A DNA stretch of 64,000 bases from Chloroflexota bacterium (GCA_023475225.1 JAMCVK010000008.1:13018-77017), one strand, 5' to 3'. Positions 20,821-45,001 are shown, counted from the stretch's first letter. Made by a program: numbers and translations. The notes: generated by a model from the letters alone, not told the origin.

Positions 20821-21858
20821 CTAAAGGATAGCCGAGGCTTGCAGTATGTGCACTCGTGGCCGGACCTCTTCAGCAAAAGATCTGATAGTCTCTTCTAAAT
20901 CATCCTCAACGGCAGGCATCGGATAGATCGTGATTTGATCCACCCCCAAGCAGAGCATCTCGTTCACCTTCTCAGCCACCTCGACAGCGTTTCCGGCCAG
21001 AGAAAGATGATCCACGAATTCATCCGGCACCAGGTCTGCCACCGCGGAGACCAGGGCGGGGTCGTGGCTGTAGCCAATCTCGGCTATCTTTTGCCTTAGT
21101 GCCAGCGGTACCTCCAGGCCGAGAGGGGCCATAAAGTTGAAGTGAGGATAGTCGGACATAAGCTGCCGGGCGATCCTTGGCTTCACCGCTGCCTTGGCCA
21201 GGCGCGAGTCAGGACAAACACAAGTATCGATCCTGGCCACAAACTCGATCTCTCTGGGGTCCCTGCCCCGCCGACGAGCGCCGTTGGCTACCAGTTCCTG
21301 GGCTGGTTTAATAACCCGTTCTGAGACACAGGAGGAGATGATCACCCCGTCAGCCACCTCCCCGGCCAACTCTAAGGTCTTCGGGCTATTACTGGCAATG
21401 TAGATGGGGATATCGGGCCGCGTGGGGAAGTCCAGTTTGCCACTGAAGCTGGTCGCTTTGCCTTGAAAATCGACCTTTCCCCCAGCCAGAAGAAGACGAA
21501 TCAAGGCTATCGCCTCTCTTATGGCCAAGGCCGGCTTCTCACGTTGAAGACCCATCTCCGCGAAACCAGAATATCCAGCGCCGATGCCCAAGACGGCCCG
21601 CCCGCCGGAGATTTCATCTACTGTGGCTATGGCTGCGGCGGTCATAGCCGGGTGCCTGGAGTAGGGATCAGTCACACAAGGGCCGAGCACGATTCGCATC
21701 GAATGCACCGCGCAAAGCGCCAGGCTGGCATACACCTCGCGAAAGAATCGTTGGTCGGCGTACCAGAAAAAGTCGTAGCCGCATGCCTCACTCAATTTGA
21801 CCATCTTGACCAATCGTTCAGCTGGATGACGACCAAGAATGAGCACACCTGCTCGCAC
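20821..21858 (-). CDS. LLM-class (luciferase-like) flavin/F420-dependent oxidoreductase
   Basis: 345 aa with a Mer/LLM-like profile (GRAVLGIGAGYSGF...). Its start abuts the upstream stop (21858/21859). Confidence 0.75.
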   Translation of the reverse strand: MRAGVLILGRHPAERLVKMVKLSEACGYDFFWYADQRFFREVYASLALCAVHSMRIVLGPCVTDPYSRHPAMTAAAIATVDEISGGRAVLGIGAGYSGFAEMGLQREKPALAIREAIALIRLLLAGGKVDFQGKATSFSGKLDFPTRPDIPIYIASNSPKTLELAGEVADGVIISSCVSERVIKPAQELVANGARRRGRDPREIEFVARIDTCVCPDSRLAKAAVKPRIARQLMSDYPHFNFMAPLGLEVPLALRQKIAEIGYSHDPALVSAVADLVPDEFVDHLSLAGNAVEVAEKVNEMLCLGVDQITIYPMPAVEDDLEETIRSFAEEVRPRVHILQASAIL

Positions 21859-24684
21859 TTAGTTTCCTCCCTGACCAGGATAAGCGGGTCTGCTACTGCT
21901 CGGTACCCCCAACCCCCACTCTTCGACACTCTCTTGTCGATCCAGTAAGGCCCGGCGGATCTTCTGCGGCGTGGCTGGTAGACTGGTTATCCTTACCCCT
22001 GTGGCATCATAGATGGCGTTGACGATGGCTGCGGCCGTAGGTACGGTGCTTATCTCTCCAACCCCCTTCGCCCCAAAAGGACCATGTGGTTCTTCGTCTT
22101 CCACAATGATCGGCAGCACCTTCGGGGCCATCTGGAAGGTAGGGATACGATACTTATTGAAGTTCAGCGTCTTTGTGATGCCCCTTTCAATGACCATCTC
22201 CTCCAAAAGGGCATAACCCACACCCATCGTGCAACCGCCCTCGATCTGCGATTTCACCAGAAGGGGGTTGATGGCCTTGCCAACATCGTGGGCCGCGATG
22301 ATGGCTAGAACCTGCACCTGTCCCGTGTTTTGATCCACTCGTACGATAGCAATCTGCGTGGCAAAGCCATAGGACAAATAGGTTACGGCTGTTTCGGAGC
22401 GCACGGTCTCTGGACTCAATGGGGTGGTGGGGGGTGGATAATACCTGCTTGAGCCAAGTACCTGAAGCCCCTGTTCGTGGGCGACGGTCAGAACGTCGTT
22501 GACGGAAAGGGATTTCTGGGGATCAGCGCGGGCAACTATATGTCCATTCTTGAATACCAGCTCCTCTTTCTTGACCTTCAACTTGTGTTCGGCCAGCCCG
22601 AGTAAGCGCATCCTGGCCTGTTGGGCTGCTAGGAGAGTGGCATTTCCAATGATGAAGGTTTGCCGTGAAGCGGTCGTGGCTCCACATGAGGGGGCCATAG
22701 CTGTATCACCACTGTAGACTTGCACCCGTTCTAAAGCGATCCCCAGCTCCTGAGCGACCATTTGCTGAAGTACTGTGTTTATGCCCTGGCCAAGCTCGGA
22801 GGCACCTATGTGAACGAAGAGCTGGCCATCCTCTCCCAGGACGATCTCTGCCCCAGCTGGCTCGTCTCTCCCATGACCAAACCCCACATTTTTGAAGGCA
22901 CAGGCAACCCCCACGCCAATACCAGATTCTCTTGGCATCTTCTTTAATTCTTCAGCTGCTCGTCGGATAGTCTCTGTCAACCCAACGCTATGCTGTAATA
23001 CCTCGCCGCTGGCGGTTACAGAGCCGACTTTGAGAGCGTTTTTCAAGCGGAGTTCGAGGGGGTCGATGCCCAACTTATGGGCCAGGGCATCCATCTGCAA
23101 TTCGTGAGCGAAGGCGACCTGTGGCACTCCAAAGCCGCGCATAGCTCCAGCCGGCGGATTGTTCGTGAATACACCTATGGCCTCCACACGCACGTTAGGA
23201 ACGGCATAGGGACCGATAGCATGCACAGCCGCATTCCTGATTGTCGGCAGGCTCAGCGAAGCATAAGCCCCTTTGTCGCTAATTATCTGCGCCTCCACAG
23301 CGGTTAAAAGTCCATCTCTAGTAGCCCCCGTTTTATAGCGCATAAGGAAGGGGTGTTTCTTCGGATGAACGATCATCGATTCTTCGCGGGAGAAGACCAT
23401 CTTGGCTGGCCGACCGGTCTTGAGCGCCAGCAGGGCCACATGAATCTGCAACGAGATGTCATCCTTACCTCCAAAGGCGCCACCGGTAACCGTATGTACT
23501 ATGCGCACCTTCTCCTCAGACAGGCCCAGGGCTTGGGCAACCTGTCTCCTATCGCCAAATGGATCCTGCGACCCGACGTAGACGGTAACCCCCCCGTCAT
23601 TGTCAGGAACAGCCATCCCCGCCTCTGGCTCAAGGAAGGCGTGCTCAGCGAAGGGGGTATCATAGGTATTCTCTATGACTACGTCGGCCATGCAGAAGCC
23701 TCGCTCAATATCCCCTTTATCGATGGTTATCCGATTGGCTATATTGCCCTCGGCGTGAATCTGCGGGGCATCCGGGGCTAAGGCCTCCTGCGCTGAAAAA
23801 ACAGCGGGAAGCTCGCGGTATTCCACCACGATCTCCTGGCAGGCTCGAGAGGCGACTTCGGGAGAGATAGCCGCCACCAGGGCTACGGCATCGCCCATAT
23901 ATCTCACCCTGTCCCGACAAAGGACTGGTTGGTCAGAGAAGATGATACCAAAGCTGTTTTCTCCAGGCACATCTTCCGCAGTCAAGACGGCCTCTACACC
24001 GGCCATCGCCCGTGCCTTGGAGGTATCGATACGGATAATCTCAGCGTGGGGCAGTTGTGCTCTTAAGGCTTGACCATAGAGCATATTGGGGAAGAACAGG
24101 TCAGCGGCGTAAATAGCCCTTCCGGTCACCTTGTCTTTGGCATCGCTACGCAGGATCGATGCTCCCACCAGAGTCGATGTCTTCAGTTCAACAGTGGTCG
24201 AACGAGGACGATGACCAGTCATCGTTTCAGCTGCCTCTTGAATGGCGCGCACAATCCGCTGGTAACCGGTACAACGGCAAAGGTTTCCAGCCAGGGCCTT
24301 TCGTATCTGCTCTTCGGAGGGATGGGGTTGGGCGTCTAGTAAAGCCTTTGCCGCCATTATCATCCCTGGTGTACAATAGCCGCATTGCACGGCACTGTGT
24401 TCAATGAATGCCTCTTGCAGGGGATCCAGCTGCCCGTTGGTACCAAGTCCCTCGATGGTCACGACCTCTTGTCCCGATGCCTTCAGCGCCAGGGTACGGC
24501 AAGCTTTAATGGCCTTACCCCCCATAATCACGGTGCAGGCTCCACAATACCCCTTACCGCAACCGTTTTTGGTCCCTGTCAAATGCAGCTGTTCCCGCAA
24601 TACATGGAGGAGCGTAGCCTCCACGGGTACAGCAAGACTGTACTCCCTACCGTTGACCATCAGGGATAGAAGAAAATTCTCCAT
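21859..24684 (-). CDS. Xanthine dehydrogenase-family molybdenum hydroxylase with fused N-terminal 2x[2Fe-2S] domain (Mop/XdhD-like), no FAD domain
   Basis: 941 aa. The N-terminus has CGKGYCGACTV and CRCTGY. The large Mo-pterin-binding part has GGAFGGK and ends in a GVGE-type region. Confidence 0.9.
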   Translation of the reverse strand: MENFLLSLMVNGREYSLAVPVEATLLHVLREQLHLTGTKNGCGKGYCGACTVIMGGKAIKACRTLALKASGQEVVTIEGLGTNGQLDPLQEAFIEHSAVQCGYCTPGMIMAAKALLDAQPHPSEEQIRKALAGNLCRCTGYQRIVRAIQEAAETMTGHRPRSTTVELKTSTLVGASILRSDAKDKVTGRAIYAADLFFPNMLYGQALRAQLPHAEIIRIDTSKARAMAGVEAVLTAEDVPGENSFGIIFSDQPVLCRDRVRYMGDAVALVAAISPEVASRACQEIVVEYRELPAVFSAQEALAPDAPQIHAEGNIANRITIDKGDIERGFCMADVVIENTYDTPFAEHAFLEPEAGMAVPDNDGGVTVYVGSQDPFGDRRQVAQALGLSEEKVRIVHTVTGGAFGGKDDISLQIHVALLALKTGRPAKMVFSREESMIVHPKKHPFLMRYKTGATRDGLLTAVEAQIISDKGAYASLSLPTIRNAAVHAIGPYAVPNVRVEAIGVFTNNPPAGAMRGFGVPQVAFAHELQMDALAHKLGIDPLELRLKNALKVGSVTASGEVLQHSVGLTETIRRAAEELKKMPRESGIGVGVACAFKNVGFGHGRDEPAGAEIVLGEDGQLFVHIGASELGQGINTVLQQMVAQELGIALERVQVYSGDTAMAPSCGATTASRQTFIIGNATLLAAQQARMRLLGLAEHKLKVKKEELVFKNGHIVARADPQKSLSVNDVLTVAHEQGLQVLGSSRYYPPPTTPLSPETVRSETAVTYLSYGFATQIAIVRVDQNTGQVQVLAIIAAHDVGKAINPLLVKSQIEGGCTMGVGYALLEEMVIERGITKTLNFNKYRIPTFQMAPKVLPIIVEDEEPHGPFGAKGVGEISTVPTAAAIVNAIYDATGVRITSLPATPQKIRRALLDRQESVEEWGLGVPSSSRPAYPGQGGN

Positions 24685-24697: not shown

Positions 24698-25831
24698 TCA
24701 GTCCACCTTCTCTAGTTCTATCTTGCTTTCGACCGGGGCGATGGGGGAAACGAATCTCACTGCCGTTCTACGCAGGATTAGTAGCCAGCGACCTAATTCT
24801 GGCGCGGCAGCTGTGATGATAATTACGGCCTGGATAACCAGATATAGCTCTAAAGGAATGTGGGTCACTCTCATCATCACCATGCCCCCCTGCATTAATG
24901 CTCCAAAGACGAAGGCGGCGACAACTATGCCAAACGAATTGTGGCGGCCCAAGATACCCACAGCGATGCCTGTCCAGCCGTATCCCGGTGAGAAATCAGA
25001 GATGAAACGCTTATGCAGGCCAAGAACCTCGCCCGCGCCACCAAGACCAGCTATGGCTCCGCTGACAAGCATAGCCAGAAAGATGTTTCTAGCCATGCTT
25101 ATGCCTGCATCCTCTGCGGCCAGTGGCGAGAGACCGGAGGCTTTCAATTCATAGCCTAAAACCGTCTTCTCCAGGACAAAATAGATCACTACCGCGCAAA
25201 GGAGGGCGAGAAAGATTGCTGCCGATAGCTGACTCGGTGGTAACAGATTGGGTAATTGAGCACTGACAGCCACAACGGCAGTTTGGGGGAAGTTCGTCTC
25301 ACCCGGCGATAAAAAGGGATAGCTCACCAGATAGCCGGTGAGGAGGATAGCGATAAAGTTCAACATCACTGTAATGATGATCTCATTTGCCCCCGTCTTT
25401 ATCTTTAATATGCCAGGGATAAGGCTCCACATCCCCCCAGCCAGAGCCCCCGCAGCCAGGGCCAAGGGGAGATGAATAAAAATGGGCAAGCCGGTGATGT
25501 ATATCCCGGCCAACGCAGAGGTGAGGGCACCCACGTACAGCTGCCCTTCCAAACCAATGTTGAACTGACGGGCCTTGGCGGCGAAGGAGAAGGCCAGTCC
25601 AGTGAAGATAAGGGGTGTAGTCTTAGCCAACGTTTGGCTCAGGTAATAAGACCCACCAAAGGCCCCATGAAACATCGCCGCATAAGCAGCGATCGGCGAG
25701 TAGCCAGCGAGAAAGATCACGATCGCACCGATTAACAGAGAGAAGACGGCTGCAAACGCTGAGAAGAGTATCTGGTTAAACCTTCCGTTACCGACCAACC
25801 ATTTTCCAAAGGCAGATTTCAACCTATTCAC
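24698..25831 (-). CDS. ABC transporter permease, BMP/nucleoside type (NupP/YufP-like)
   Basis: 377-aa polytopic membrane protein. It overlaps the ATPase gene by 8 nt. Confidence 0.8.
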   Translation of the reverse strand: MNRLKSAFGKWLVGNGRFNQILFSAFAAVFSLLIGAIVIFLAGYSPIAAYAAMFHGAFGGSYYLSQTLAKTTPLIFTGLAFSFAAKARQFNIGLEGQLYVGALTSALAGIYITGLPIFIHLPLALAAGALAGGMWSLIPGILKIKTGANEIIITVMLNFIAILLTGYLVSYPFLSPGETNFPQTAVVAVSAQLPNLLPPSQLSAAIFLALLCAVVIYFVLEKTVLGYELKASGLSPLAAEDAGISMARNIFLAMLVSGAIAGLGGAGEVLGLHKRFISDFSPGYGWTGIAVGILGRHNSFGIVVAAFVFGALMQGGMVMMRVTHIPLELYLVIQAVIIITAAAPELGRWLLILRRTAVRFVSPIAPVESKIELEKVD

Positions 25832-27401
25832 CTCTGTTTTGCCAGGAGACCATACCCGTTTCTTCCACAGCCACGGGCTCCGTTCGTCCGATCTCAGCTG
25901 CCTTCTTGCCCATCATCAGTAAGCCTATCTCTTCTCGGGCAAATTCTCGAGTCTTTCTGACATCCATGATCTTACCCTCATAGATGACAGCGATACGGTC
26001 GCTTAGGGCGATGATCTCATCCAAATCTGTGGAGATCAACAGTACCACCCTGCCCTGGTCTCTGACCTCCACCAGTTTTTGATGGACGTATTCGGTGGCT
26101 CCGATGTCCAGCCCTCTTGTTGGCTGAACAGCGATAACTACTTCTGGGTCCTTACCGAATTCCCTGGCCACGACCAATTTCTGCTGATTACCTCCCGACA
26201 AGTACTTGGCTTGAACCTGCTCGCTAGGGGTTCTTATATCGAATGCAGCGATAAGCCTTTGGGCATAAGAGCGAATGGCTTCGTGGTCCAGGATAAAGCC
26301 CTTAGCGAAGGGTAGTCTGTAGTGCACGCCAAGGATGAGGTTATATTGCACAGTGAAATCGGGGATTAGACCACGGGCCTGTCTGTCCTCAGGTATATGG
26401 GCCACGCCGGCGGCATTGATTTCCCTCGGACTCCTATTACAGAGGTCTCTTTCACAAAACAGTATGCAGCCTCGGCTAGCCCGCCGCAGCCCTCGCAAGG
26501 CCTCGCACAACTCAGATTGCCCATTGCCCTCAACACCGGCGATCCCCAGGATTTCCCCGCGGCAGAGCGACAGGTTGACCCCATTCACGGCCGGTAGATG
26601 CCGAGCATCGTAAACCACTAAATTCTCTATCCTAAGAGCCTCCACCGGCTGCTGAGCCTCCCGTTTAGGCACCTCGAAAAGGATATCTCTTCCGACCATC
26701 ATCCTGGCCAGCTCCCGAGGCGTCGTTTTGCTCTTCTCGACGGTGCCAATAACCTTTCCCCTGCGCAACACGGTTATGCGATCACTGATGGCCATAACCT
26801 CTTTTAGCTTGTGGGTGATAAAGATGATTGTTTTACCCTCTGCTTTGAATTGTCTTAAGACATTAAAAAGGTTATCTATCTCTTGGGGTGTCAGAACGGC
26901 CGTAGGCTCATCCAGGATGAGCGTTTCGGCTCCCCGGTATAGGGCTTTTAGTATCTCTACCCTTTGCCTTAGTCCAACAGAGAGGCTGGCGACCTTCGCC
27001 TTTGGATCAATCCTGAGCCCGTACTGCTTGGAGACCTTCTCGGTGTACTCAACGGCCTTGTCGAAATCAAAAAGGAGTTTATCTGTAAGATCCGTTCCCA
27101 GGACAAGGTTCTCTGCCACCGTAAAAGGAGCAACCAACATAAAATGTTGATGGACCATACCGATCTTCAGCCTGATGGCGTCACTGGCATCTCTTATTTC
27201 AGACCTGATCCCATTCACGACGATATCGCCACTATCCTTATGATAGAGGCCATAGAGAATGTTCATCAAGGTAGTCTTTCCGGCCCCATTCTCTCCCAGA
27301 AGGGCGTGAATCTCCCCTTTGCGCACGGCCAAATCTATGTGATCGTTGGCCACGACGGGACCAAACCTCTTGGTGATGCCTCGCATCTCTATGACATTCA
27401 T
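25824..27401 (-). CDS. ABC transporter ATP-binding protein, tandem-ATPase type (NupO/YufO/RbsA-like)
   Basis: Walker A is GENGAGKTT, and a second NBD is present. ATG 27401 is preceded by AAGGAGA, so it is preferred over the track start at 27446. Confidence 0.9.
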   Translation of the reverse strand: MNVIEMRGITKRFGPVVANDHIDLAVRKGEIHALLGENGAGKTTLMNILYGLYHKDSGDIVVNGIRSEIRDASDAIRLKIGMVHQHFMLVAPFTVAENLVLGTDLTDKLLFDFDKAVEYTEKVSKQYGLRIDPKAKVASLSVGLRQRVEILKALYRGAETLILDEPTAVLTPQEIDNLFNVLRQFKAEGKTIIFITHKLKEVMAISDRITVLRRGKVIGTVEKSKTTPRELARMMVGRDILFEVPKREAQQPVEALRIENLVVYDARHLPAVNGVNLSLCRGEILGIAGVEGNGQSELCEALRGLRRASRGCILFCERDLCNRSPREINAAGVAHIPEDRQARGLIPDFTVQYNLILGVHYRLPFAKGFILDHEAIRSYAQRLIAAFDIRTPSEQVQAKYLSGGNQQKLVVAREFGKDPEVVIAVQPTRGLDIGATEYVHQKLVEVRDQGRVVLLISTDLDEIIALSDRIAVIYEGKIMDVRKTREFAREEIGLLMMGKKAAEIGRTEPVAVEETGMVSWQNRGE

Positions 27402-27499
27402 CGATCCATTCTCCTTAAATGATGGTAAGGGGTCCGGATAAGGCAACGATGGCCGGGCCTTGCTTACTAGTCATCGTGACCCTCAGCCAGTAATCCTCA

Positions 27500-28282
27500 C
27501 TACTCCTCACCGCTGAGGCTTTCAGCGGCTTCCCTCTCAGCGCGGTCAAAAACCTCCGAATGGACGAATCCTCTGGGCCAAGCCAGCTCCTGGTCGGGCA
27601 ATTGGGCCAGTCCGGCTCTTACAATCTTGGTCAGCTCCGCAACACGTTTCCCTAGGCACCTCACCGCGTTCAGCCCAATCTCATCTTGCAGAACAGCTTG
27701 CTTCTCCCCGGGCTGGTCGGAATGAACAGGGTAGGGGAAACCCTGAGTAGCCATAGCACCCCAATGTCCACCGATGCTGGTAGCTGGACGAGCTGGCCCT
27801 ACCCCACAGACGATCATGTCGTGGATGTAGAACCAGCGGTGGATGCTATCAATCGTTGCCTCTTGACCCCCATTTCGTTCTGCCGCGATGGCGATGGCCC
27901 CACCAACTTTGTTACGGAGATGAAAGCCCATCTCGATGGCCATAGATTTATCCAAGACTGTCTTCAGCTGAGCCGGCACCCCTCCCCAATAAGAGGGGGC
28001 TCCGATAATGATCCCATCAGCCCGCATCATCGCCTTAAGGATCTTATTGATGTCATCCCTATCTTCACGATAACACATACACGGACGCTCTAACGATGGC
28101 TTGCGCCAGCAGGGATAGGTGGCCCGACATCCGCCCTCGATCTTCATCTCTGCCAGAGCTAAAAATTCGGACTCAACACCTGGAATCTCCTCAGCGGCCT
28201 TGAGCGCCTCTTTAACCAGTATTTCCGTATTCCCACCTCGTCTAGGACTTCCACATATACCCAGGATTTTAACCTTTGCCAT
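27500..28282 (-). CDS. Flavodoxin-fold FMN reductase / iron-sulfur flavoprotein-like protein
   Basis: KILGICGSPRRGGNTEILV is an N-terminal NADPH-dependent FMN reductase signature. A Cys cluster (GGCRATYPCW...PCMC) follows. ATG 28282 follows GGGAGGAG. Confidence 0.7.
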   Translation of the reverse strand: MAKVKILGICGSPRRGGNTEILVKEALKAAEEIPGVESEFLALAEMKIEGGCRATYPCWRKPSLERPCMCYREDRDDINKILKAMMRADGIIIGAPSYWGGVPAQLKTVLDKSMAIEMGFHLRNKVGGAIAIAAERNGGQEATIDSIHRWFYIHDMIVCGVGPARPATSIGGHWGAMATQGFPYPVHSDQPGEKQAVLQDEIGLNAVRCLGKRVAELTKIVRAGLAQLPDQELAWPRGFVHSEVFDRAEREAAESLSGEE

Positions 28283-28302
28283 ACTGCTCCTCCCACTCAT
28301 AC

Positions 28303-29403
28303 TTATTCCAATCTATGGACTGAATCAACCAGGTTCCGGGTGACCTCCTTCACAAACGAGGAGAGTAATCTTACTGTGTTTTCTACATCGTCCCACTTGA
28401 CCAACTCGTTAGCCGAGTGATTGTATCTGGCCGGTATGAGGACCGGGCAGGTGAGTACTCCCTCTCGCGAGGTGTGGATCACACTGCCATCGGCGATCGC
28501 CCCCGGCTTAATTTGGAGCTGATAGGGGATGCCCTCCTTCTGAGCGATGCTTACCAGGGCCCTACTAATGAGCCTGCTGGAGAACAAGCCAATTTGGGCC
28601 CCGAAACCAACACGACTGCCATATTCCTCCATCAAGCGAACTACAGGGCCCTTACCGAGTTCTATTTGGGGCCCAGCATCATCAGGGAAGTTTCCGGTAA
28701 TGTCGATATGGATAGCCACGTCCGGATCCACCGCATAGGCAGCCGTCCTGGCTCCCCGCAGTCCTACCTCATGCTGGGCAAGTCCTACTCCTACAACTGT
28801 GACCTCGTGTTTCTCGTGGGCCAGCCATTTCATAACCTCAATTAGGACGGTCAGCCCAATACGATCATCTACAGACTTGGTGGCGATGATCCCGTTCCTC
28901 AGTTCCATGAAATGGGGAACGAAGGTGACCATATCGCCAAGACATACCCCTTGCTGCTCTGTCTCTTCCTTATTAAAGGAACCGATATCGATGAACAGCT
29001 TATGAAAAGGAGTGACCCGTCTCTTTTCTTCCTCTGTCCAGGCGTGGGTGGACGGTAAGCCGATCACGCCGGGTACTGCTCCCTGCGCTGTCTTTATGAT
29101 CACCGACTGGGTGGGCAGGACCCGGTCATCGATCCAACCCACCTTCTCAAATCGGATAATTCCGTTTCGTTCGATGGAGGAGACCATCAATCCGATCTCA
29201 TCCATATGGGCGGTCAACATCAGCACAGGGCCGGCTGTACCATGCCCTTTCTTAGAGGCGATGAGATTGCCCAATCTATCGACAGACAGATCATCGACGA
29301 AAGGGGTAATCTCCTCTTTGATTATGGTTCGCAGTTCACCCTCATCACTGGATGCCCCCGAGGCGGACACAAGCCTTTTGAATAGTTCCTTCATTAAGTA
29401 CAA
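28303..29403 (-). CDS. M42-family metallopeptidase (FrvX/glutamyl aminopeptidase-like)
   Basis: 366 aa. VLMLTAHMDEIGLMV ... DDRIG ... are typical M42 motifs. Confidence 0.85.
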   Translation of the reverse strand: MYLMKELFKRLVSASGASSDEGELRTIIKEEITPFVDDLSVDRLGNLIASKKGHGTAGPVLMLTAHMDEIGLMVSSIERNGIIRFEKVGWIDDRVLPTQSVIIKTAQGAVPGVIGLPSTHAWTEEEKRRVTPFHKLFIDIGSFNKEETEQQGVCLGDMVTFVPHFMELRNGIIATKSVDDRIGLTVLIEVMKWLAHEKHEVTVVGVGLAQHEVGLRGARTAAYAVDPDVAIHIDITGNFPDDAGPQIELGKGPVVRLMEEYGSRVGFGAQIGLFSSRLISRALVSIAQKEGIPYQLQIKPGAIADGSVIHTSREGVLTCPVLIPARYNHSANELVKWDDVENTVRLLSSFVKEVTRNLVDSVHRLE

Positions 29404-35209: not shown

Positions 35210-35251
35210 GCCTGATCCTCCCAAGCACAACCTTTCATTTTAACTACTGTG

Positions 35252-35747: not shown

Positions 35748-35810
35748 ATATGCGGATATTACGGATATTAAATATATCCGCAATATACTTCCCTTATCGG
35801 CTGTTGTCAA
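35748..35810 (-). promoter_or_regulatory. MarR gene promoter with overlapping inverted-repeat operator
   Basis: Minus strand reads TTGACA (35810-35805), 17 nt, TATATT (35787-35782). Immediately downstream lies the inverted repeat TGCGGATAT (plus 35751-35759) / ATATCCGCA (35774-35782), plus an internal ACGGATAT (35761-35768). Confidence 0.55.
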
Positions 35811-37206: not shown

Positions 37207-39144
37207 TCACTTTACTAATTTACCATACTGCGCCAGCCTTTCGGCCACTCCTTCCAGGCCAAGCTCCTGTAGGCATTTCTCTGTCTGCCAACTCGTGGCC
37301 AGGTCCCAGCCCTGTAGGGTATAGTACTCCTCCAACATTTGTTCCCACTTCTTGTGCTCTAGCACTTCTCCAGCGAATGGCCCTGATTTAGTGGGCTCCC
37401 TCATCAGCCGTTCTGGAGGGAAATCATCCTGGCGCGTGAAGCCAGCGTGAAGAGTGTTAAAGGCCTTCTCAACGTTATGGAGACGTTGACCGAGACGCAG
37501 CAGTTCCCCACTGGAGAGGTTAGTGCCTGTAGTGGCTGAGAAAAGTAGGGCGAGGTCCTCGGGATCAATTAAGTCGCTATCCAGCCAGCAGGTTAGGAAA
37601 TAGCATATCCCCAACATATCGACCACAGCCTTAAACTTCTCAAACCAGAAAACGACTTGGGCTTGTCCCTCGTAGGCGGTGAGGTTACCGGCGGCTGCTG
37701 TACCATAGAGGGCTCTTCCCAACTCCGGCGATATGCGCCGGAAGCCGGTACTTGGAGCACCGTCAAGGTGTCCCCCACCCCGTGTGCTGGTTACAATACC
37801 CAAGGCCCAAGATTTGCTTATCCTCATCCCCCCCTCGTTCATATCCGCCCCTTTTATATGCATAGCGTAGCGTTCAGAACCTCTACCGATGGTCTTGGCT
37901 GCTTGTCTCACGCCCTGGGCTAAGAATTTCCCGAAGTCCTGCCGATAGGCTAGCTGTTCCACCAACTTTAGAGCAGCCTGATAATCACCCCAATTGAGCT
38001 GCAGCCCTCCCGTATCTTTGATATTGATGATACCACGTTCGTAGAGCTCGCAGGCCCAGGCCAGGCATACCCCAGCCATATCTGTATCCAAACCCAGTTG
38101 GTTACACAGGGCCTGAGCCTTGATGAGCGCAGGGGGGTAATCAATATCAAGATTGGGGCCAAAGACCCTGATGGTGTTAGCCTGTATCCCCTCACAGCGT
38201 ATGCCGGCGTAGGGTCCCTCTTTTATACCATAGAAATGGCCACAATAGACAGGACAGTTGAAACAAGCTAACCTTCGCCGCTCAAAGTTGTCCTTAAAGA
38301 CCTGCTCTTTTATCTTCGCCGATCGCTCGGCAGGCCAGTAGTCATCCTGGTAATTACGCACGGTTTGAGGTTGCGTACCATAAGCTCCTCCAGCTGCATA
38401 GGCATAATGCGTTCCTCCAGTGCGAAGCAACCCTGCTCCGGATGATTCTTCGATCTTTCGTAAGCAGCGCCTCACATGCTCCAACAGCGTATCTGGATCG
38501 TAGACCTGAATCGGCTGGGTGCCTCGAACAGCGATGGCTTTCAGGCGTTTAGAGCCCAGTACAGCCCCTGTCCCACCCCTGCCCGCCGCTCTGCCTCTCT
38601 CGATGATCAGACAAGCACCCAGTACCAGGTTTTCTCCAGCCGGACCAATACTGGCCACCCGCAGGCGATCATCATCCATCCTCTCCTGTAACCAGCTCTC
38701 CGTCTCCCAGGTAGTCTTGCCCCAAAGAGGAGAGGCGTCCAGGAGCTCAGCCTTATCATCCTGGATAAGCAAAAAGACCGGCTGAGATGCTACTCCTTCA
38801 ATTATAAGGGCATCAAAGCCGGCAAACTTCAGTTCTGGTCCGAACCGTCCTCCGGCGCTGGAGGAGGCTACCCCACCGGTAAGGGGGTTCTTCGTATCAA
38901 CGTTCAAGCGCCCTGAGGCTGGAGCAATAGTACCCGTGAGGGGCCCGGTGCTTAACACTACCTTATTACCCGGCTCAAGGGCGCCAACCGATGGCTCAAG
39001 CTCCTGGAACAAAACCCACTGACCAATCCCACGTCCACCTATCATCTCTCGGGCATAAGCCTCAGTCGGCTCTACGTTTATCTTCGCCGTTGATAGGTCC
39101 ACTCGCAGGATCTTTCCTGTCCAGCCAAGGGTCTGTTCCACCAC
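37207..39144 (-). CDS. Aldehyde:ferredoxin oxidoreductase family (tungstopterin-type AOR)
   Basis: 645 aa. GWTGKILRVDLSTAKI...GGRGIG matches the AOR N-terminal domain and the length fits. GTG start. Confidence 0.9.
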   Translation of the reverse strand: MVEQTLGWTGKILRVDLSTAKINVEPTEAYAREMIGGRGIGQWVLFQELEPSVGALEPGNKVVLSTGPLTGTIAPASGRLNVDTKNPLTGGVASSSAGGRFGPELKFAGFDALIIEGVASQPVFLLIQDDKAELLDASPLWGKTTWETESWLQERMDDDRLRVASIGPAGENLVLGACLIIERGRAAGRGGTGAVLGSKRLKAIAVRGTQPIQVYDPDTLLEHVRRCLRKIEESSGAGLLRTGGTHYAYAAGGAYGTQPQTVRNYQDDYWPAERSAKIKEQVFKDNFERRRLACFNCPVYCGHFYGIKEGPYAGIRCEGIQANTIRVFGPNLDIDYPPALIKAQALCNQLGLDTDMAGVCLAWACELYERGIINIKDTGGLQLNWGDYQAALKLVEQLAYRQDFGKFLAQGVRQAAKTIGRGSERYAMHIKGADMNEGGMRISKSWALGIVTSTRGGGHLDGAPSTGFRRISPELGRALYGTAAAGNLTAYEGQAQVVFWFEKFKAVVDMLGICYFLTCWLDSDLIDPEDLALLFSATTGTNLSSGELLRLGQRLHNVEKAFNTLHAGFTRQDDFPPERLMREPTKSGPFAGEVLEHKKWEQMLEEYYTLQGWDLATSWQTEKCLQELGLEGVAERLAQYGKLVK

Positions 39145-39362: not shown

Positions 39363-40763
39363 CTATAGGGTGGGCCACCTGGAACACGGTTGAACACCTG
39401 TCCTGGCTAAAAGCGCCTGGGCACGTCGTCTTGCTTCAGCCAAGACCTCCTCCTCATCCAGGGTAAGAACATGGCCATCCTTGACCACTACTTTTCCATC
39501 TATAAGCACAGTGTCAACATCACCTCCACAGGCGCTGTAGACTAACCCTGAAACAGGATTGGGACAAGGGGTTAGATGGGGCTTGTCCATATCGATGATG
39601 ACCAAATCTGCCTTCTTGCCAACCTCCAAGGAGCCGATCTCACTATCTAGCCCCATAGCCTTTGCCCCATTGATCGTGGCCATCTCAACTACTTGTTCGG
39701 CCGGCATCACCGTCGGATCGAGGGTGATGCCATTGTGGATGACTGCAGCGAGCTTCATCTCTCGTACGAGATCGTAGGTATTATTACAGTGACCACCATC
39801 GGTGCCCAAGCCCACGTTGACCCCTTGCTGAAGCATCGCCGGAATCGGGGCGAAGCCGTGTCCTCCTTTCATATTAGAAGAGGGACAATGCACCACATGC
39901 GTCCCCATCCGAGCAAGGGTGACTATTTCAGCCTCTGTTAACCAAACAGCGTGGGCCAGGAGGCAATTTGGCCCCAACAAGCCAACGCTTTCAGCAAACT
40001 CAACGGGCAGCAGACCGAATTCACTCTTCGTATACTCCACGTTGGTTTTCACCTCAGCCAGGTGTACCGTGATACCCAAGCCCCTTTTCGCGGCAATCTT
40101 GCTGATCTCCTGGTACAGACCAGGCGTGCATCCTCCCAGTGGGCGAGGACCGAACCAGACCTTGATGCGACCACCGCCCACCCCATCCCACTTATCGTGC
40201 ATGGCTAAGGCTTCAGCCAGGCTGGCCTGGCGATCCTCCTCCAAACCGCTGTGCATAATATTGTACATAATATTTAACGCCGCGGCACGACCAGGACTGG
40301 GCCGATCCATCACCGTCTTAGATAGCACCGCCCTCATCCCAGACGCTCTTACCACCTCAGCTATTCCATCAAACCCATAGCGGCTGGCGATCATCGACTC
40401 GACGAAGGCCGTAGTGCCCGAGCGCAACATCTCCAATAGACAGAGGGCGGCGCTGGCCCGCCCGTCCTCCACAGTGTAATTCCCCTGCAGTACCAAAATT
40501 CTTTGGCCAAGCCTCTGTAACTGAGGTAGATCATCGGCACAGCAACGGAGCATCGCCTGGGCCAGGTGAACGTGGGTATTAATGAGGCCTGGCATAATGA
40601 GCTTGCCTGTAGCCTCGATCCGTTCCTCAGCGGGGAACTGCTTCCTCATCTCCTCCGTCTTTCCTACCCCCACGATGCGGTCGCCCTGAATGGCAACTGC
40701 TCCATCGAGGATGATACGTCGTTGCGCATCTACAGTGATAACAGTAGCCTTCTCAAAAATCAT
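39363..40763 (-). CDS. Amidohydrolase, ATZ/TRZ/SsnA-like family (second paralogue)
   Basis: 466 aa. PGLINTHVHLAQAMLR, HLAE and the C-terminal GSLEVGKKADLVIID are present. Confidence 0.85.
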   Translation of the reverse strand: MIFEKATVITVDAQRRIILDGAVAIQGDRIVGVGKTEEMRKQFPAEERIEATGKLIMPGLINTHVHLAQAMLRCCADDLPQLQRLGQRILVLQGNYTVEDGRASAALCLLEMLRSGTTAFVESMIASRYGFDGIAEVVRASGMRAVLSKTVMDRPSPGRAAALNIMYNIMHSGLEEDRQASLAEALAMHDKWDGVGGGRIKVWFGPRPLGGCTPGLYQEISKIAAKRGLGITVHLAEVKTNVEYTKSEFGLLPVEFAESVGLLGPNCLLAHAVWLTEAEIVTLARMGTHVVHCPSSNMKGGHGFAPIPAMLQQGVNVGLGTDGGHCNNTYDLVREMKLAAVIHNGITLDPTVMPAEQVVEMATINGAKAMGLDSEIGSLEVGKKADLVIIDMDKPHLTPCPNPVSGLVYSACGGDVDTVLIDGKVVVKDGHVLTLDEEEVLAEARRRAQALLARTGVQPCSRWPTL

Positions 40764-40877: not shown

Positions 40878-41891
40878 CTACTTAATGGTAACCGCCGCCG
40901 GATCAACCTTCTTCAAGCCATCGACGTAAACGAACGGCTTGAAGTTAGGTACCACCGCTCCCTTCAGGGCCAGACCCGCATCTATGGCCCATTGGGCCTG
41001 TCTTTGCCACTCGTTGAGCAACCCCTGGCTCAGCTCAGTCTTAATCTGATACTCATCCCATATAGCTTCCACCAGAACTGGATCCCACTTCGTTCCCTTG
41101 ACCACCAGCTCGATCGCCTCCTTCTTGTTCTGCTTCAGGAAGGCGTCGGCTTTGAGCATCACCCGCAAGATACGCTCAATTGTCTCCGGATTCTGCTGAG
41201 CATAGTCTTGAGTAGTAGCCAGCAAGGAGTGACCAGTATACTGGGGATAAATAAATTCCACATAGTTGTCCCCCAGGGCCTGCTTCGCCTTGAAGAAGTT
41301 GGGTTGCCAGCTGAAGAAGGCATCGATATTGCGGGCAGACAAGGCCAGAACCATATCGGTCGGGACTACGTTCACCACCTGCACATCGGCCTCGGTTAAC
41401 CCGTTAGCCTTGAGGAAGGAATGCATAAAATATTGGGCGTTGGTCCCCAGGCTGGTACCCACCTTCTTGCCTTTCAGGTCTTTTGGGGTAGTTATCCCAG
41501 CATCCTTACGCGCTACCGCCCGCCAAGTCGTGTACCTCTCTGTATCGGCGATGATGGCTATCTTCTGCCCCTGAAAGGCAGCGAAGACGATGGGTATCTC
41601 GGCCACCGTAGCCAGGTGAGCCTTCCCTCCTAGGACAGCCTCCAAGGCGGCCCGACCAGTGGTGAAGGTCACCTTCGTCACCTTAATCCCTTCTTGAGCC
41701 CAAAGCTCCTTAGCATCAGCGATAGGGATCTGGGCCCAGGCTGGCGAAGGTGTCTCAGCAATGATCAGTTCCACCGGTTTCACGGCCACCTTCGTCGGTG
41801 TTGGTGTTGGGGCAGCCGCGGGGGTACAGGCGCTGGAGGCGAAACTGAGCAGTACAACGATGATTATGGGTAGCGAAAACCATCTTTTCAC
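40878..41891 (-). CDS. ABC-type substrate-binding lipoprotein, NMT1/THI5-like (second copy, orphan)
   Basis: 337 aa with a lipobox-like SSAC followed by TPAAAPTPTPTK. GTG start with AAAGGAGAC RBS. Confidence 0.75.
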   Translation of the reverse strand: MKRWFSLPIIIVVLLSFASSACTPAAAPTPTPTKVAVKPVELIIAETPSPAWAQIPIADAKELWAQEGIKVTKVTFTTGRAALEAVLGGKAHLATVAEIPIVFAAFQGQKIAIIADTERYTTWRAVARKDAGITTPKDLKGKKVGTSLGTNAQYFMHSFLKANGLTEADVQVVNVVPTDMVLALSARNIDAFFSWQPNFFKAKQALGDNYVEFIYPQYTGHSLLATTQDYAQQNPETIERILRVMLKADAFLKQNKKEAIELVVKGTKWDPVLVEAIWDEYQIKTELSQGLLNEWQRQAQWAIDAGLALKGAVVPNFKPFVYVDGLKKVDPAAVTIK

Positions 41892-42025: not shown

Positions 42026-43417
42026 CTATGAGAACGCGCTGCCCAGAGGCACACCTAAGTCTATAAGCTCTCGCTTCACTTTGAGATAGAGATCAAGCCA
42101 CTCTCGGGCTGGCTGAAGTGTCCCCAAATCGAAGCACTCGACGAAGCTCTTCCCCTTGGGGGGATCTTTAAGGCTATCCTCGTACTTCGCCAGGAGGATC
42201 TTGACAATCTCGTTAGCTTGTTCGCGTTTCAATCCGGCTGATCGCTTTAAGACCTCGCCACAAAATTTGCACTCCAGAGGGGTTAGGTAGTTGGCGTACT
42301 TACCGCCGGCCGAACGGGGTCCGATCACAATACTGGCTCCCGAAACAGCGAAGTTCAACATCACGGCAGCTGACTCATAGAGCAACATCTCCGTGCCAGG
42401 ACCAGCCACCTGATTAGTAACCGAATTAGTGATTAGATGGGTATTGCGACTCAAAGCTTGAAAGACGACGCTTATCGTCCACTGGGCATGGCGGCCGCAG
42501 TTGCCCATGTAGCGCAGGTCCAGCACGCCAGAGGCACCGCAATGACACTGGTGAACGACGTATTGCAACAGGGAAAAGGCGATAGCTGAAAGGGCAGCCC
42601 CCTCCGGTGGCCCGGAGTAGCCACCGATCATGGAGGAGGCCCCAGAGAGGATCACCCCACCACAGTTCAAGGCATGGACCACTTTATGAAGGGAGGTATA
42701 GGTAGTTTTGAGCTCGGCTGGGGAGAGGACAAGAGCGATATCTGTTGGTTTAAAGCCACCCGGTAGACCATAGCCACCCAATTGCCCAAACTCGGTTGTG
42801 CTGGAGATAACCGCTGTCGCGGGCATGCCTGATCTACCAGCCCGCCAGAGCGCCTCGTGGTGCATCTGGGCATGGAGCCTTCCAGCGAATGTTTCATAGG
42901 GGGTAGCGGACAATATGGGTCGGCCAAATACAGTCTCCAGGGAACCACCCTGGGCGATGTCTACCTCCCGGTTTTGGACAATGCCCTGCATAAGAGGCAC
43001 CCATAGGTCCTCGGAGACCACTATGCCCAAGGGGGCCGTAAAGGCTGGGGGATGTGGATCTTCCGGCTGGCGCGCTCGCAGAATCACTGTTTCTCGTCCC
43101 TCGCCGACAGGTAACTCACGCGGCGCCCGCTGAATGGCTGATCGCAATTCATCCTCACTCACCTTGATTACTCTCTCAGTATTTAAGCAAAGCATGCCCA
43201 CTTCAACGGCCAACTCAAAACCAGCCTTAAAGAAGGCGTCAGCCAGAGCATCGTCGCTGTTTATAGGGTGCTCTGGGGTGCAGGTACCTTGCAGGTGGTA
43301 ATCCTTCAACTTCTCGGCTACCCTGGGGGGAATAACACGCATATCCCAGTCTTTAACTGCGCAGAGCGGGCCGGTGTGGGCTCGATCGAGAATATCCAGG
43401 ATAGTAAAGACAGACAT
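42026..43417 (-). CDS. MtmB-family (monomethylamine methyltransferase fold) protein lacking pyrrolysine
   Basis: 463-aa uninterrupted ORF. It matches Methanosarcina MtmB (as recalled) end to end. DRAHTGPLCAVKDWDMRVIP aligns with DRAKVGEKCTQDDWDLMKIP. FFKAGFELAVEVGMLCLNTERVIKVSEDEL aligns with LFKAGFEMLLECGIYCTDTHRIVKYTEDEI. VAGPGTEMLLYESAA aligns with CAGPCTEMCLLEASA. GKSFVECFDL aligns with GKTFQECYDV. There is no in-frame TAG. Confidence 0.75.
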   Translation of the reverse strand: MSVFTILDILDRAHTGPLCAVKDWDMRVIPPRVAEKLKDYHLQGTCTPEHPINSDDALADAFFKAGFELAVEVGMLCLNTERVIKVSEDELRSAIQRAPRELPVGEGRETVILRARQPEDPHPPAFTAPLGIVVSEDLWVPLMQGIVQNREVDIAQGGSLETVFGRPILSATPYETFAGRLHAQMHHEALWRAGRSGMPATAVISSTTEFGQLGGYGLPGGFKPTDIALVLSPAELKTTYTSLHKVVHALNCGGVILSGASSMIGGYSGPPEGAALSAIAFSLLQYVVHQCHCGASGVLDLRYMGNCGRHAQWTISVVFQALSRNTHLITNSVTNQVAGPGTEMLLYESAAVMLNFAVSGASIVIGPRSAGGKYANYLTPLECKFCGEVLKRSAGLKREQANEIVKILLAKYEDSLKDPPKGKSFVECFDLGTLQPAREWLDLYLKVKRELIDLGVPLGSAFS

Positions 43418-43439
43418 TGAATACCTCTCTCTTTTTCTC

Positions 43440-44117
43440 TTAATTTGCGCTGGTTTTTGTGGCCGATTTCATCAGCTCTTTACAGACCCTCACGGCCTCA
43501 GCGGCATCACGACCATAGGCATCGGCCCCTATGGAGTGGGCCCACTCTCGCGTCACCGGTCCACCGCCGACGATAACCTTGTACATCTCTCTTTCACCAC
43601 TTGCTACCAGGGTAGAGATGAGATATTTCATATAAGGCATCGAGGTCGTCAGTAAAGAGCTCATAGCAATGATATCCGCCCCCGTGTCCCGCGCTCTAGC
43701 CAGGAAGGTAGACACCGGAACATCCGTCCCCAGGTCAGTCACCTCAAAGCCATTCACCTGGAGCATAACTCCCACCAGGTTCTTTCCTATATCGTGGATG
43801 TCGCCTTGCATCGTCCCAATGACCACTCTGGCCAAAGACTTTACCGCTGAGTCTCCCTGTCTGAGGACGGGTTCCAGAACTTTATTGATCTCCTGGACGA
43901 CTTCTGCGGCCAACATCATCTCCGGCAGAAAGATCTCAAACCGCTCAAATTTATCCCCAATCTTCCTGAGAGTGGGGATGATGCACTCATCGAATATTTG
44001 GGGTGGGGTCAGCCCAACAGTTAACGCCTGCTGGGCCAGCTCGTGCCCCCGTGTGGTTTGTCCTTGACTTATGGCCGCCATAAGGCTCGCCTTGATCTCC
44101 TCGACTGATGTGCTCAT
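43440..44117 (-). CDS. Corrinoid (cobalamin-binding) protein, MtmC/MtbC/MttC-like
   Basis: 225 aa. An N-terminal helical cap is followed by a B12-binding Rossmann domain with DxHxxG (GDIHDIGKN). Confidence 0.85.
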   Translation of the reverse strand: MSTSVEEIKASLMAAISQGQTTRGHELAQQALTVGLTPPQIFDECIIPTLRKIGDKFERFEIFLPEMMLAAEVVQEINKVLEPVLRQGDSAVKSLARVVIGTMQGDIHDIGKNLVGVMLQVNGFEVTDLGTDVPVSTFLARARDTGADIIAMSSLLTTSMPYMKYLISTLVASGEREMYKVIVGGGPVTREWAHSIGADAYGRDAAEAVRVCKELMKSATKTSAN

Positions 44118-44281: not shown

Positions 44282-45001
44282 TTAAGAAAGGCCCCCTTCG
44301 ATGGCAATTACCCTGGCCGGTGCTCCATCAGATCCCTTTATCTTCAAGGGGAGGCATATTAGCCAGACCCGTTCCCTGCTGATGGCCCCTAGATTAGTTA
44401 ACCACTCGATCAGAACGATTCCCTTCTTAAGAAATTTACGGTGGTTTGGACTACCTTTCCCCGAAGGGCGCAGCGCCCCACAATGTGGGCATGCGACAAA
44501 TGGTTGAACCTCAGCCATAAAGTCAAGGGCGAGGGATTTGATGCCTCGGCCGATAAGCCAGTCGCAGGCATCTGTGGAAAGCCAGATCATAGCGCGCCAG
44601 AATCTCTCTGTTCCCCAAGGCCCTCGCTCCGTCCAGCCGCTGCGCAGGATGACTATATCGCCCTCTTTCACCTGGGCCGTGGAGGAGCTGAGATCCGCCG
44701 CAGTAACACCCTCACCTGGGTGTTTATGACTCAAATCAATGAGGACCGCTTCCCCCACCAGCTGTTCCAGGGGGATTTCATCGTTGGCCAGCCCATCCTC
44801 ATAAAAATGTTTGGGGGCATCTATATGGGTGAAGCTCTGCGTAGTGGTCTGTATCTTCTGCATAAAGAGGCCATCTTTAGCAATCGTGGCGAAGGTTTCA
44901 ATCCTCGTCGGGGGCTCCTCCTGGCCGAAGGTCACCCTGGCTGGATATTTGGTCCAGGCATCTTGCGAAGATATGCTCAACGTGAGATCGATCAAACGCA
45001 C
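44282..45001 (-). CDS. Cyclase-family protein (kynurenine formamidase-like metal hydrolase)
   Basis: 239 aa with the HxDxPxH motif (THIDAPKHF). GTG start. Confidence 0.75.
   Translation of the reverse strand: MRLIDLTLSISSQDAWTKYPARVTFGQEEPPTRIETFATIAKDGLFMQKIQTTTQSFTHIDAPKHFYEDGLANDEIPLEQLVGEAVLIDLSHKHPGEGVTAADLSSSTAQVKEGDIVILRSGWTERGPWGTERFWRAMIWLSTDACDWLIGRGIKSLALDFMAEVQPFVACPHCGALRPSGKGSPNHRKFLKKGIVLIEWLTNLGAISRERVWLICLPLKIKGSDGAPARVIAIEGGLS

Follow-up and report, generated by a model that had tools for sequence, protein, structure and literature searches.

Which substrate does a Chloroflexota bacterium break down with a 24-kb group of molybdenum (Mo) and tungsten enzyme genes, and do these genes form one pathway? 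The group (hereafter the island) fills the minus strand from 20.8 to 45.0 kb of a 64,000-nucleotide stretch of DNA (GCA_023475225.1, JAMCVK010000008.1:13018-77017; hereafter the window), and an earlier note on this DNA had read it as an uncharacterised anaerobic pathway for purines or other N-heterocycles. We give an even chance to the reading that the core of the island is an anaerobic catabolic locus for a purine-type N-heterocycle, linked to ferredoxin and coenzyme F420, and related to the cluster for reductive urate (2,8-dioxopurine) breakdown, from which it would differ by losses and by new equipment. At the same even confidence, this core would comprise a run headed by a MarR-family regulator at 35.7 kb and ending with a 2-oxoacid:ferredoxin oxidoreductase (OFOR) at 18 kb, plus a block in which a tungsten-type aldehyde:ferredoxin oxidoreductase (AOR) is flanked by two amidohydrolases, AmhB and AmhA.

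Domains and families were called by Pfam and NCBIfam profile scans of the window's open reading frames, with scores compared to curated cut-offs, and gene calls and intergenic gaps are based on identical Logan contigs. All genes named in the earlier note were recovered on the minus strand with the same or nearly the same coordinates, and the domain content agrees with its list. Four genes were missing from that list: a second permease, a solute-binding protein of the NMT1/SsuA type, a PF04199 cyclase and a ferredoxin of 66 amino acids.

At the centre of the locus is a hydroxylase of 941 amino acids (21859-24684; this and all genes below are on the minus strand unless noted) in which two [2Fe-2S] modules (Fer2/Fer2_2) are fused to a Mo-pterin part (Ald_Xan_dh_C and MoCoBD_1/2). 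It has the XdhAC/DOPDH architecture and no flavin adenine dinucleotide (FAD) domain. Its best NCBIfam model is TIGR03311, the selenium-dependent xanthine dehydrogenase (XDH), at 818.1 bits narrowly below the cut-off of 830.45; PucD (660 bits), the MOP-type aldehyde oxidoreductase NF045668 (607 bits, cut-off 1100) and 4-hydroxybenzoyl-CoA reductase (558 bits) rank lower. In the PDB, the S, L and M subunits of E. barkeri nicotinate dehydrogenase sum to 808 bits, and the top single chain is the aldehyde oxidoreductase (MOP) of D. gigas at 447 bits. The E. barkeri enzyme (3HRD) and TIGR03311 are the closest solved and curated families, although the former has separate S, L, M and F (FAD) subunits and the window enzyme is fused and scores below the cut-off of the latter. 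The Mo enzymes do not group with the aldehyde, CO or 4-hydroxybenzoyl-CoA types; their nearest clade is that of selenium-dependent XDH and nicotinate dehydrogenase. The description of the fused enzyme as XdhD-like holds for its architecture but not for its sequence, which is 28% identical to E. coli XdhD and 34% to XdhA; the likeness to clostridial XdhAC (FeS and Mo, no FAD) is likewise one of architecture.

Gene neighbourhoods of relatives connect this enzyme to several of its neighbours. The stand-alone Mo-pterin large subunit of the island (31888-34194, 768 amino acids; Pfam, NCBIfam and PDB), whose nearest structure is also E. barkeri nicotinate dehydrogenase, falls in a distinct subfamily with about 30 homologues (43-56% identity). 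Five contexts of this subfamily (L094-L098, from two NCBI assemblies and three JGI metagenomes) all share one cluster; not every contig spans the whole of it (L094, for example, covers 1-22169). Its order is FMN_red, an AOR (AOR'), polyferredoxin, FAD subunit, URO-D, AOR and one or two enzymes of the dimethyl sulfoxide reductase (DMSOR) family, followed by a [2Fe-2S] subunit, the large subunit, a fused FeS-Mo enzyme, two amidohydrolases, a PreT-like protein and a PreA/DHO_dh-like (UacX-like) protein. Methyltransf_2 and Pterin_bind genes lie between the large subunit and the fused enzyme in two of the five. The amidohydrolases are a dihydropyrimidinase/hydantoinase (453 bits, cut-off 393) and an SsnA-family protein (438 versus 444 bits). 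By tblastn, the window proteins are 69% (FMN_red, which heads the cluster in L094), 57-60% (AOR), 51-54% (large subunit) and 45-49% (fused enzyme) identical to those of the L094-type cluster. The gene order differs between the two, and the Fe-S and FAD subunits, polyferredoxin, URO-D, DMSOR-type enzyme, hydantoinase, SsnA and PreT/PreA of the relatives have no counterpart in the window. The papers searched do not describe this cluster, and its conserved AOR and flavoprotein partners appear not to have been described before. Judged by conserved neighbourhood, the fused Mo enzyme, the large subunit, the AOR and the flavoprotein belong to an anaerobic urate-type N-heterocycle system running on low-potential carriers; the interpretation in the earlier note is partly supported.

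Other contexts widen the comparison. A sixth (L099) combines a fused Mo enzyme, a methyltransferase, FAD and FeS subunits, the large subunits LSU1 and LSU2 (55% identity), a luciferase-like oxidoreductase (LLM) and a Bmp-family solute-binding protein. Loci of Bathyarchaeia and Methylomirabilota hold Bmp-type ABC permeases, adenine deaminase, LLM, two XDH sets and a YqeB-like gene; a Bacillota locus holds adenine deaminase, XDH, 8-oxoguanine deaminase, PreT/PreA, a fused Mo enzyme and SsnA; and a Clostridiaceae locus holds YgeX, PucR, XDH, ferredoxin, AOR, FMN_red and YqeB. The loci of these four groups support the purine link. Among GTDB representatives, by contrast, relatives of the large subunit (35-41% identity) are mostly encoded in standard XdhC-XdhB-large-subunit operons.

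The parent pathway has since been described. In E. coli, XdhD-YgfM reduces urate to 2,8-dioxopurine, which is dearomatised by YgfK or the clostridial PydA-like UacX before SsnA opens the ring; a function has also been assigned to HyuA, and the SsnA family (TIGR03314/IPR017700) serves as a marker of uricolytic clusters (PMC12507026). With this work and that on the C. sporogenes enzyme (bioRxiv 10.1101/2025.04.24.650524), both from 2025, the "uncharacterised pathway" of the earlier note becomes one of a known kind. The window shares with the reductive urate clusters (E. coli ygeW-xdhD; C. difficile/C. sporogenes xdhAC-ygfK/uacX-ssnA-hyuA) the architecture of an FAD-less fused [2Fe-2S]-Mo enzyme from the NDH/DOPDH-related clade and COG0402 amidohydrolases, and the electron supply is likely of ferredoxin type in both. 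Unlike them, it lacks SsnA-family, HyuA, YgfK/UacX, YgeW/UacY, YgeY, YgeX, YqeA and YqeB/C genes and has instead an F420-type LLM, an M42 peptidase, an SbnB-like enzyme of the OCD/mu-crystallin family (OCD), an AOR, an iron-sulfur-flavoprotein-like protein and a Bmp-type ABC importer.

These absences were established by tblastn of the E. coli K-12 purine-cluster proteins (NC_000913.3) against the whole window at E <= 1e-4; the L094 cluster proteins, including the FAD subunit, PreT/PreA and hydantoinase, were also used as queries. Among the E. coli queries, matches were limited to XdhA and XdhD (to the two Mo genes), XdhC (to the N-terminal part of the fused gene, which is the sole XdhC-like [2Fe-2S] module in the window), SsnA and GuaD (to AmhA and AmhB, at about 25% identity). 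XdhB, YgfM, YgeW, YgeX, YgeY, HyuA, YqeA/B/C, MocA, YgfK and YgfS/T had none in the 64 kb, nor had PreT/PreA of L094, and its hydantoinase left a 40-bit trace to AmhA only. The carbamoyltransferase, carbamate kinase, diaminopropionate ammonia-lyase and hydantoinase that the earlier note had reported as lacking from the island are therefore absent from all 64 kb, and the same is true of an FAD subunit, for which E. coli XdhB and YgfM and the L094 subunit served as queries.

Because there is no FAD subunit, the electrons must come from low-potential carriers. Ferredoxin has been proposed as the donor where this subunit is missing (PMC12507026), and the fused, FAD-less C. sporogenes enzyme, which is selenium dependent and clusters nearest to nicotinate dehydrogenase, works with viologen and not with NAD(P)H (bioRxiv 10.1101/2025.04.24.650524). 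The earlier proposal that electrons pass to ferredoxin rather than NAD agrees with these published data. None of the scanned window reading frames matched the SelD model; no search aimed at SelD was made.

The LLM (20821-21858; PF00296, 194 bits; F420-dependent group) begins at the base directly after the stop codon of the fused Mo gene. Its strongest NCBIfam and PDB matches are all F420 enzymes, Mer first (Mer equivalogs 200-202 bits, cut-offs 276 and 349), from which we infer that it uses F420. Chloroflexota SsnA clusters without YgfK/UacX carry a PF00296 "putative F420-dependent yanthine reductase" instead (PMC12507026). The window resembles this variant in having an LLM beside an XdhA/XdhD homologue, although the variant is defined by an SsnA-family member, which the window does not have. 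Both the ferredoxin proposal and the LLM link are thus independently supported by the 2025 papers. In a Methylomirabilia contig the gene right after a Mo large subunit encodes a 53%-identical LLM homologue, but two other homologues are not so placed, and identity to the other Mo-adjacent LLMs (Bathyarchaeia/Methylomirabilota loci, the second LLM of L091, and L099) is only 26-33%.

The active sites of the two Mo proteins were compared in bovine numbering, with residues placed through an alignment to rat XDH and MAFFT alignments. Both proteins have the Ald_Xan_dh_C, MoCoBD_1 and MoCoBD_2 domains and keep the equivalent of the catalytic Glu1261. In the fused enzyme, Gln767, Glu802, position 879 and Arg880 correspond to Gln373, Asp408, Arg483 and Asn484, and Phe914, Phe1009 and Glu1261 to Phe518, Phe602 and Glu877. 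The catalytic Glu and the equivalents of Arg912 and Phe914 are kept; the Glu802/Arg880 pair that orients xanthine is absent (Asp408 and Asn484, with Arg483 one residue earlier). In the large subunit the first four positions are Ser, Ser, Gln and Val, and the last three Tyr, Lys (in a loop with an insertion) and Glu. The predicted substrate pockets of both enzymes are unlike those of all relatives examined. An exhaustive HMMER search with the fused enzyme over 1.84 billion cluster representatives (50% clusters) gave 148 further sequences (P0356-P0503), almost all with differing patterns at six pocket positions and none with that of the window; of the 150 best representatives, nearly each has its own combination. 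Asn880 and a Phe1009 loop of the form KN-xGFGHG are common to the window enzyme and the cluster-type fused enzymes and are not found in the stand-alone clade that is nearest overall.

As a test for purines the Glu802/Arg880 pair is not decisive. It is also missing in E. coli XdhA and XdhD, so the pocket does not exclude purines. Arg879 was considered as a signature of SsnA-adjacent (DOPDH-like) enzymes, which holds for L004 and L020 only, and was dropped: the L094-type enzymes have Glu-Asn there, and the C. sporogenes enzyme is reported to differ from bovine xanthine oxidoreductase by only F1009V and A1078T/S (bioRxiv 10.1101/2025.04.24.650524). Since both Mo pockets are atypical, the substrate, purine or other N-heterocycle, cannot be fixed by homology. 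The proposal of anaerobic purine or N-heterocycle degradation is thus borne out by the clade of the Mo enzymes and by the co-clustering in all five contexts, but not as far as the substrate is concerned.

The two amidohydrolases (Amidohydro_1; AmhB, 39363-40763; AmhA, 35823-37202) are paralogues with 40% identity, and both keep the HxH, HxxE, H and D motifs. They had been called ATZ/TRZ/SsnA-like, of which the ATZ/TRZ (COG0402) part stands and the SsnA part does not: AmhA and AmhB score 253 and 223 bits against the SsnA model TIGR03314 (cut-off 455.5), and AmhB reaches 222-224 bits when NF005540 (cut-off 444) is included, with 25% identity to E. coli SsnA and 26-30% to the SsnA-like protein of L094. 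They score higher on 5'-deoxyadenosine deaminase and ATZ/TRZ models, below every curated cut-off (AmhB, NF005557, 416 versus 522 bits), and are nearest to AtzA, MTA/SAH and 5'-deoxyadenosine deaminases and 8-oxoguanine deaminase (PDB, NCBIfam). Homologues of AmhB at 48-52% identity occur in two Bathyarchaeia loci with LLM and two XDH sets; adenine deaminase was confirmed in the Bathyarchaeia loci L010 and L009.

The AOR (37207-39144; PF01314 and PF02730) lies 4 bp from AmhA and is full length (AFOR_N 250 bits, AFOR_C 335 bits). It has the same domains as the tungsten AORs of the Pyrococcus/Aromatoleum type (1AOR, 8C0Z, 9MQX; 365-382 bits) but is, unlike these, embedded in and conserved with N-heterocycle Mo-hydroxylase clusters. 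True AORs come first in the PDB ranking (382 and 365 bits), and a role as a BamB-like dearomatising reductase was rejected, BamB being the most distant match (198 bits). The informative AOR orthologues, at 57-60% identity, surfaced only through the large-subunit subfamily, and no link between AOR and purine degradation was found in the literature searched. The FMN_red protein (27500-28300; PF03358) resembles iron-sulfur flavoproteins, with four cysteines (C58, C64, C74 and C76) in an insert.

We then consider whether the genes are organised as a unit. The co-directional run noted earlier is real but not specific to the island, as it reaches from about 13 to 50 kb and includes unrelated genes (SPFH, DUF2207, RtcA and a cell-wall amidase); strand alone is therefore no argument for a single unit. 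Spacing is more informative in the lower part. Gaps of 0-137 bp separate permease 2 (BPD_transp_2; Pfam; 34280-35230), the large subunit, the Bmp/PnrA-family solute-binding lipoprotein (30661-31827; PF02608, 216 bits; PDB matches Lbp, BmpA/D, PnrA and AtzT), the OCD enzyme (29501-30523), the M42 dinuclear metallopeptidase (28303-29403), FMN_red, the ABC double ATPase (25824-27446), permease 1 (BPD_transp_2; 24698-25831; this and the ATPase by Pfam and NCBIfam), the fused Mo enzyme, the LLM, the 66-amino-acid 2x[4Fe-4S] ferredoxin of the OFOR delta type (20603-20803, between LLM and OFOR alpha) and the alpha, beta and gamma subunits of OFOR (18016-20580). Genes for the large subunit, OCD, M42 and FMN_red come between those of the four-gene ABC transporter, so these enzymes must share the regulation of the importer. 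This interleaving is the strongest internal argument for a functional unit.

Just upstream of marR (35252-35734; PF01047), a promoter-like TTGACA-17-TATATT, an 11/12 match to the sigma-70 consensus, is followed by a 13-nt inverted repeat, ATATTGCGGATAT-N5-ATATCCGTAATAT (35756-35810, minus strand; a consensus match only). The repeat overlaps the -10 region and precedes a ribosome-binding site and the likely marR start (ATG at 35728). It is a plausible candidate for a MarR operator, in which case the gene would look autoregulated. A second promoter-like site (45150-45122) precedes the PF04199 cyclase gene. The totals of promoter- and terminator-like sites in the window are no higher than in shuffled sequence; these two sites are noteworthy.

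In the pathway we propose, the Bmp-type ABC importer would take up a base or nucleoside, and the two ATZ/TRZ-type hydrolases would strip exocyclic amino groups or open the reduced ring. Ring oxygens would be added or removed by the fused Mo enzyme, which lacks FAD, and perhaps also by the large subunit, with electrons exchanged with ferredoxin or with the Fe-S-flavoprotein-like FMN protein rather than with NAD(P). The F420-type LLM could carry out the ring reduction done elsewhere by YgfK/UacX, and the adjoining ferredoxin and OFOR could supply or recycle low-potential electrons. The AOR might handle an aldehyde-level intermediate or act as a low-potential redox partner. By analogy, M42 (PF05343, 271 bits; NCBIfam equivalogs all below cut-off) and the OCD enzyme (PF02423; an NAD(P) enzyme nearest SbnB, with TIGR03944 at 242 versus 327 bits and PDB 4M54 at 195 bits) may stand in for YgeY and YgeX on ureido- or diaminopropionate-type products. 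The SbnB product 2,3-diaminopropionate is an end intermediate of the urate route, a coincidence that is suggestive and not a test.

The remaining genes are attached more loosely. OFOR alpha passes the generic 2-oxoacid:acceptor model (NF006412, 528 bits, cut-off 411) and is KOR/VOR-like, with PorA at only 99 bits; the acyl-CoA dehydrogenase (ACAD; 16698-17888), whose membership of the unit is uncertain, is of the acryloyl-CoA reductase/glutaryl-CoA dehydrogenase type. Judged by these similarities, pyruvate would suit the two no better than carbon skeletons of the amino-acid or pyridine type. Another OFOR is encoded at the end of the window (61805-63684, minus strand). Above AmhB are an NMT1/SsuA-family solute-binding protein (40878-41891; PF09084; TIGR01728 at 133 bits, below cut-off) with no cognate permease adjoining, a homologue of the methyltransferase MtmB (42026-43417), a methyltransferase-cognate B12-binding corrinoid protein (43440-44117; PF02310 and PF02607; TIGR02370, 185 bits versus a cut-off of 215; MtgC/MtbC-like) and the PF04199 "putative cyclase", a metal hydrolase of the arylformamidase/isatin-hydrolase type (44282-45001; Pfam 97 bits; TIGR03035 arylformamidase weak at 42 bits), whose link to the rest is uncertain. 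The MtmB homologue is of MT1 type and does not depend on pyrrolysine: PF05369 matches at 302 bits over profile positions 2-449 of 450, in an uninterrupted frame with no in-frame amber codon. No MT2 or activase gene was seen near the pair (42026-44117). The only characterised non-pyrrolysine MtmB, MtqB, removes methyl groups from tetramethylammonium and choline (PMC13044021). As related Mo clusters repeatedly have methyl-transfer genes from other families next to them, a tie of the MtmB/corrinoid pair to methylated substrates is conceivable. The MtmB, corrinoid, solute-binding protein and cyclase genes are best treated as a neighbouring methyl-transfer module with an unproven link to the rest.

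Elsewhere in the window, a PNP_UDP_1 nucleoside phosphorylase (54728-55564, minus strand) and a cytidine deaminase (12467-13024, plus strand) lie outside the island. At 243-7347 (minus strand), an N6/N4 DNA methylase of 1199 amino acids with a DUF559 domain and a weak intein-splicing match adjoins a ResIII helicase-type protein of 990 amino acids, and the pair looks restriction- or defence-like. There are no tRNA or rRNA genes in the window, and the best matches to its proteins are spread over several phyla.

A number of observations weigh against a purine locus. No SsnA-family, hydantoinase, PydA/UacX, YgfK, YgeW/X/Y or YqeB/C gene is present in the 64 kb, nor is an Fe-S or FAD partner gene for the large subunit, and no purine, Mo-cofactor or B12 riboswitch, nor any other Rfam family, was found at gathering threshold (chance-level matches only at E <= 1). 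Bovine Gln767 contacts the Mo=O group; residue 211 of the large subunit is Ser at this position, whereas Gln is invariant in the 24 relatives aligned, members of its own subfamily among them. The 119 homologues closest to the fused enzyme (50-56% identity; those named are Anaerolineae/Chloroflexi) all have Glu802 and Arg880 with Leu or Val at 1009, the window protein being the sole exception, and none of about 270 sequences shares its Asp/Arg-Asn/Phe pocket. Of the named homologues, the nearest two were looked up (P0012 and P0016, 53-56% identity); their genes stand alone, with no synteny. The AOR is conventional by similarity, a metagenome scan anchored on it gave five loci at about 51% identity with no island genes nearby, and we know of no aldehyde in the urate pathway. 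The KOR/VOR-like OFOR and glutaryl-CoA dehydrogenase-like ACAD fit amino-acid catabolism as well. A Bmp-family solute-binding protein was detected in only one related cluster (L099, 28% identity), and none of the related clusters examined has a counterpart of M42, OCD, the cyclase or MtmB/corrinoid. About a third of the 24 kb (MtmB/corrinoid/solute-binding protein/cyclase, M42 and OCD) is not co-conserved. Co-conservation in relatives thus holds for the large subunit, fused Mo enzyme, AOR and FMN_red but not for these genes, and the 24 kb cannot be upheld as one conserved unit. The window sequence, finally, was found in DNA runs of a mine-tailings metagenome only, and in no RNA run.

What else could the locus be? 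The same enzymology may serve an N-heterocycle other than a purine, for example a pterin, an N-methylated base or a pyridine carboxylate like nicotinate or picolinate; we consider this rather unlikely. The ring would be hydroxylated, reduced with ferredoxin or F420 and opened by an amidohydrolase to an aldehyde for the AOR, and its carbon would be passed on through a 2-oxoacid to an acyl-CoA; in nicotinate fermentation, for instance, enamidase gives 2-formylglutarate. The nearest structure of both Mo proteins would suit this scheme, as would the lack of the Glu802/Arg880 xanthine pair from both pockets, the operon of AOR and amidohydrolase with its 4-bp gap, the KOR/VOR-like OFOR and glutaryl-CoA dehydrogenase-like ACAD, the recurrence of methyl-transfer and pterin-binding genes (URO-D, Pterin_bind, MtmB) near these Mo enzymes, the relation of the LLM to the pterin enzyme Mer, and the ABC ATPase and solute-binding protein, whose best NCBIfam model is a "putative B6 ABC transporter". 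However, neither the B6 nor the Mer match comes near its cut-off, the amidohydrolase searches returned no enamidase-like match or other nicotinate-pathway gene, and the relatives' cluster has hydantoinase, PydA-like genes and an SsnA-family gene, the uricolytic marker (PMC12507026). Very improbable, in our judgement, is a fused enzyme that is a MOP-type aldehyde oxidoreductase and partners the AOR in aldehyde detoxification. The D. gigas enzyme is the top single PDB chain with an identical FeS-Mo architecture, and Arg483 aligns with MOP Arg501, but the MOP model reaches 607 of the 1100 bits required where the selenium-dependent XDH model reaches 818 of 830, and the nicotinate dehydrogenase subunits sum to 808 bits. 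Phe914 is kept, position 1009 is Phe (Tyr in MOP), position 802 is Asp (Phe425 in MOP), and the gene context is one of amidohydrolases, an LLM and a Bmp transporter.

It is also unlikely that there is no single pathway and that the 24 kb brings together, in one direction, catabolic units which are independent of each other, a mosaic as is typical of anaerobic fermenters. These would be a peptide and amino-acid unit (M42, OCD, OFOR, ACAD, AOR), a nucleoside and base salvage unit (Bmp ABC importer, deaminases, Mo hydroxylases) and a methylamine-type methyltransferase module. Such a mosaic is in keeping with a minus-strand run that passes the island bounds with SPFH, DUF2207, RtcA and cell-wall amidase genes, with the second OFOR at 61.8-63.7 kb, with promoter-like sites before both marR and the cyclase gene, with M42, OCD and MtmB not being conserved with the Mo genes elsewhere, and with homologues of the fused enzyme and AOR at 51-56% identity that lack synteny. 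It is at odds with the shared regulation implied by the mixing of ABC genes with those for the large subunit, OCD, M42 and FMN_red, no gap being longer than 137 bp, and with the co-clustering of AOR, FMN_red, the large subunit and the fused Mo enzyme in five other contigs.

The purine-type reading can be carried further, to a version we regard as improbable. Here the tungsten AOR and the Fe-S-flavoprotein-like FMN protein would be integral and conserved members of a ferredoxin-driven anaerobic N-heterocycle pathway in which the F420 LLM replaces YgfK/UacX and the ATZ/TRZ-type hydrolases open the reduced ring to give an aldehyde-level product, and in this bacterium MtmB and the corrinoid protein would N-demethylate methylated purines or bases related to them before hydroxylation. 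If true, this would be the first anaerobic route for methylated N-heterocycles.

The biochemistry of anaerobic purine breakdown was reportedly solved only in 2025, with gut Enterobacteria and Clostridia as the sole subjects. The present locus, together with five related clusters from metagenomes, points to re-wired versions of it in environmental anaerobes: an F420-type LLM would take over from the flavin/Fe-S ring reductase, there would be no FAD subunit, and a tungsten AOR and a flavoprotein form a conserved pair with a role that the published pathway does not explain. The pocket diversity of the fused FeS-Mo family implies a large radiation of unassigned N-heterocycle specificities, and the locus offers testable candidates for the physiological electron donor of FAD-less Mo enzymes and for alternative ring-reduction chemistry.

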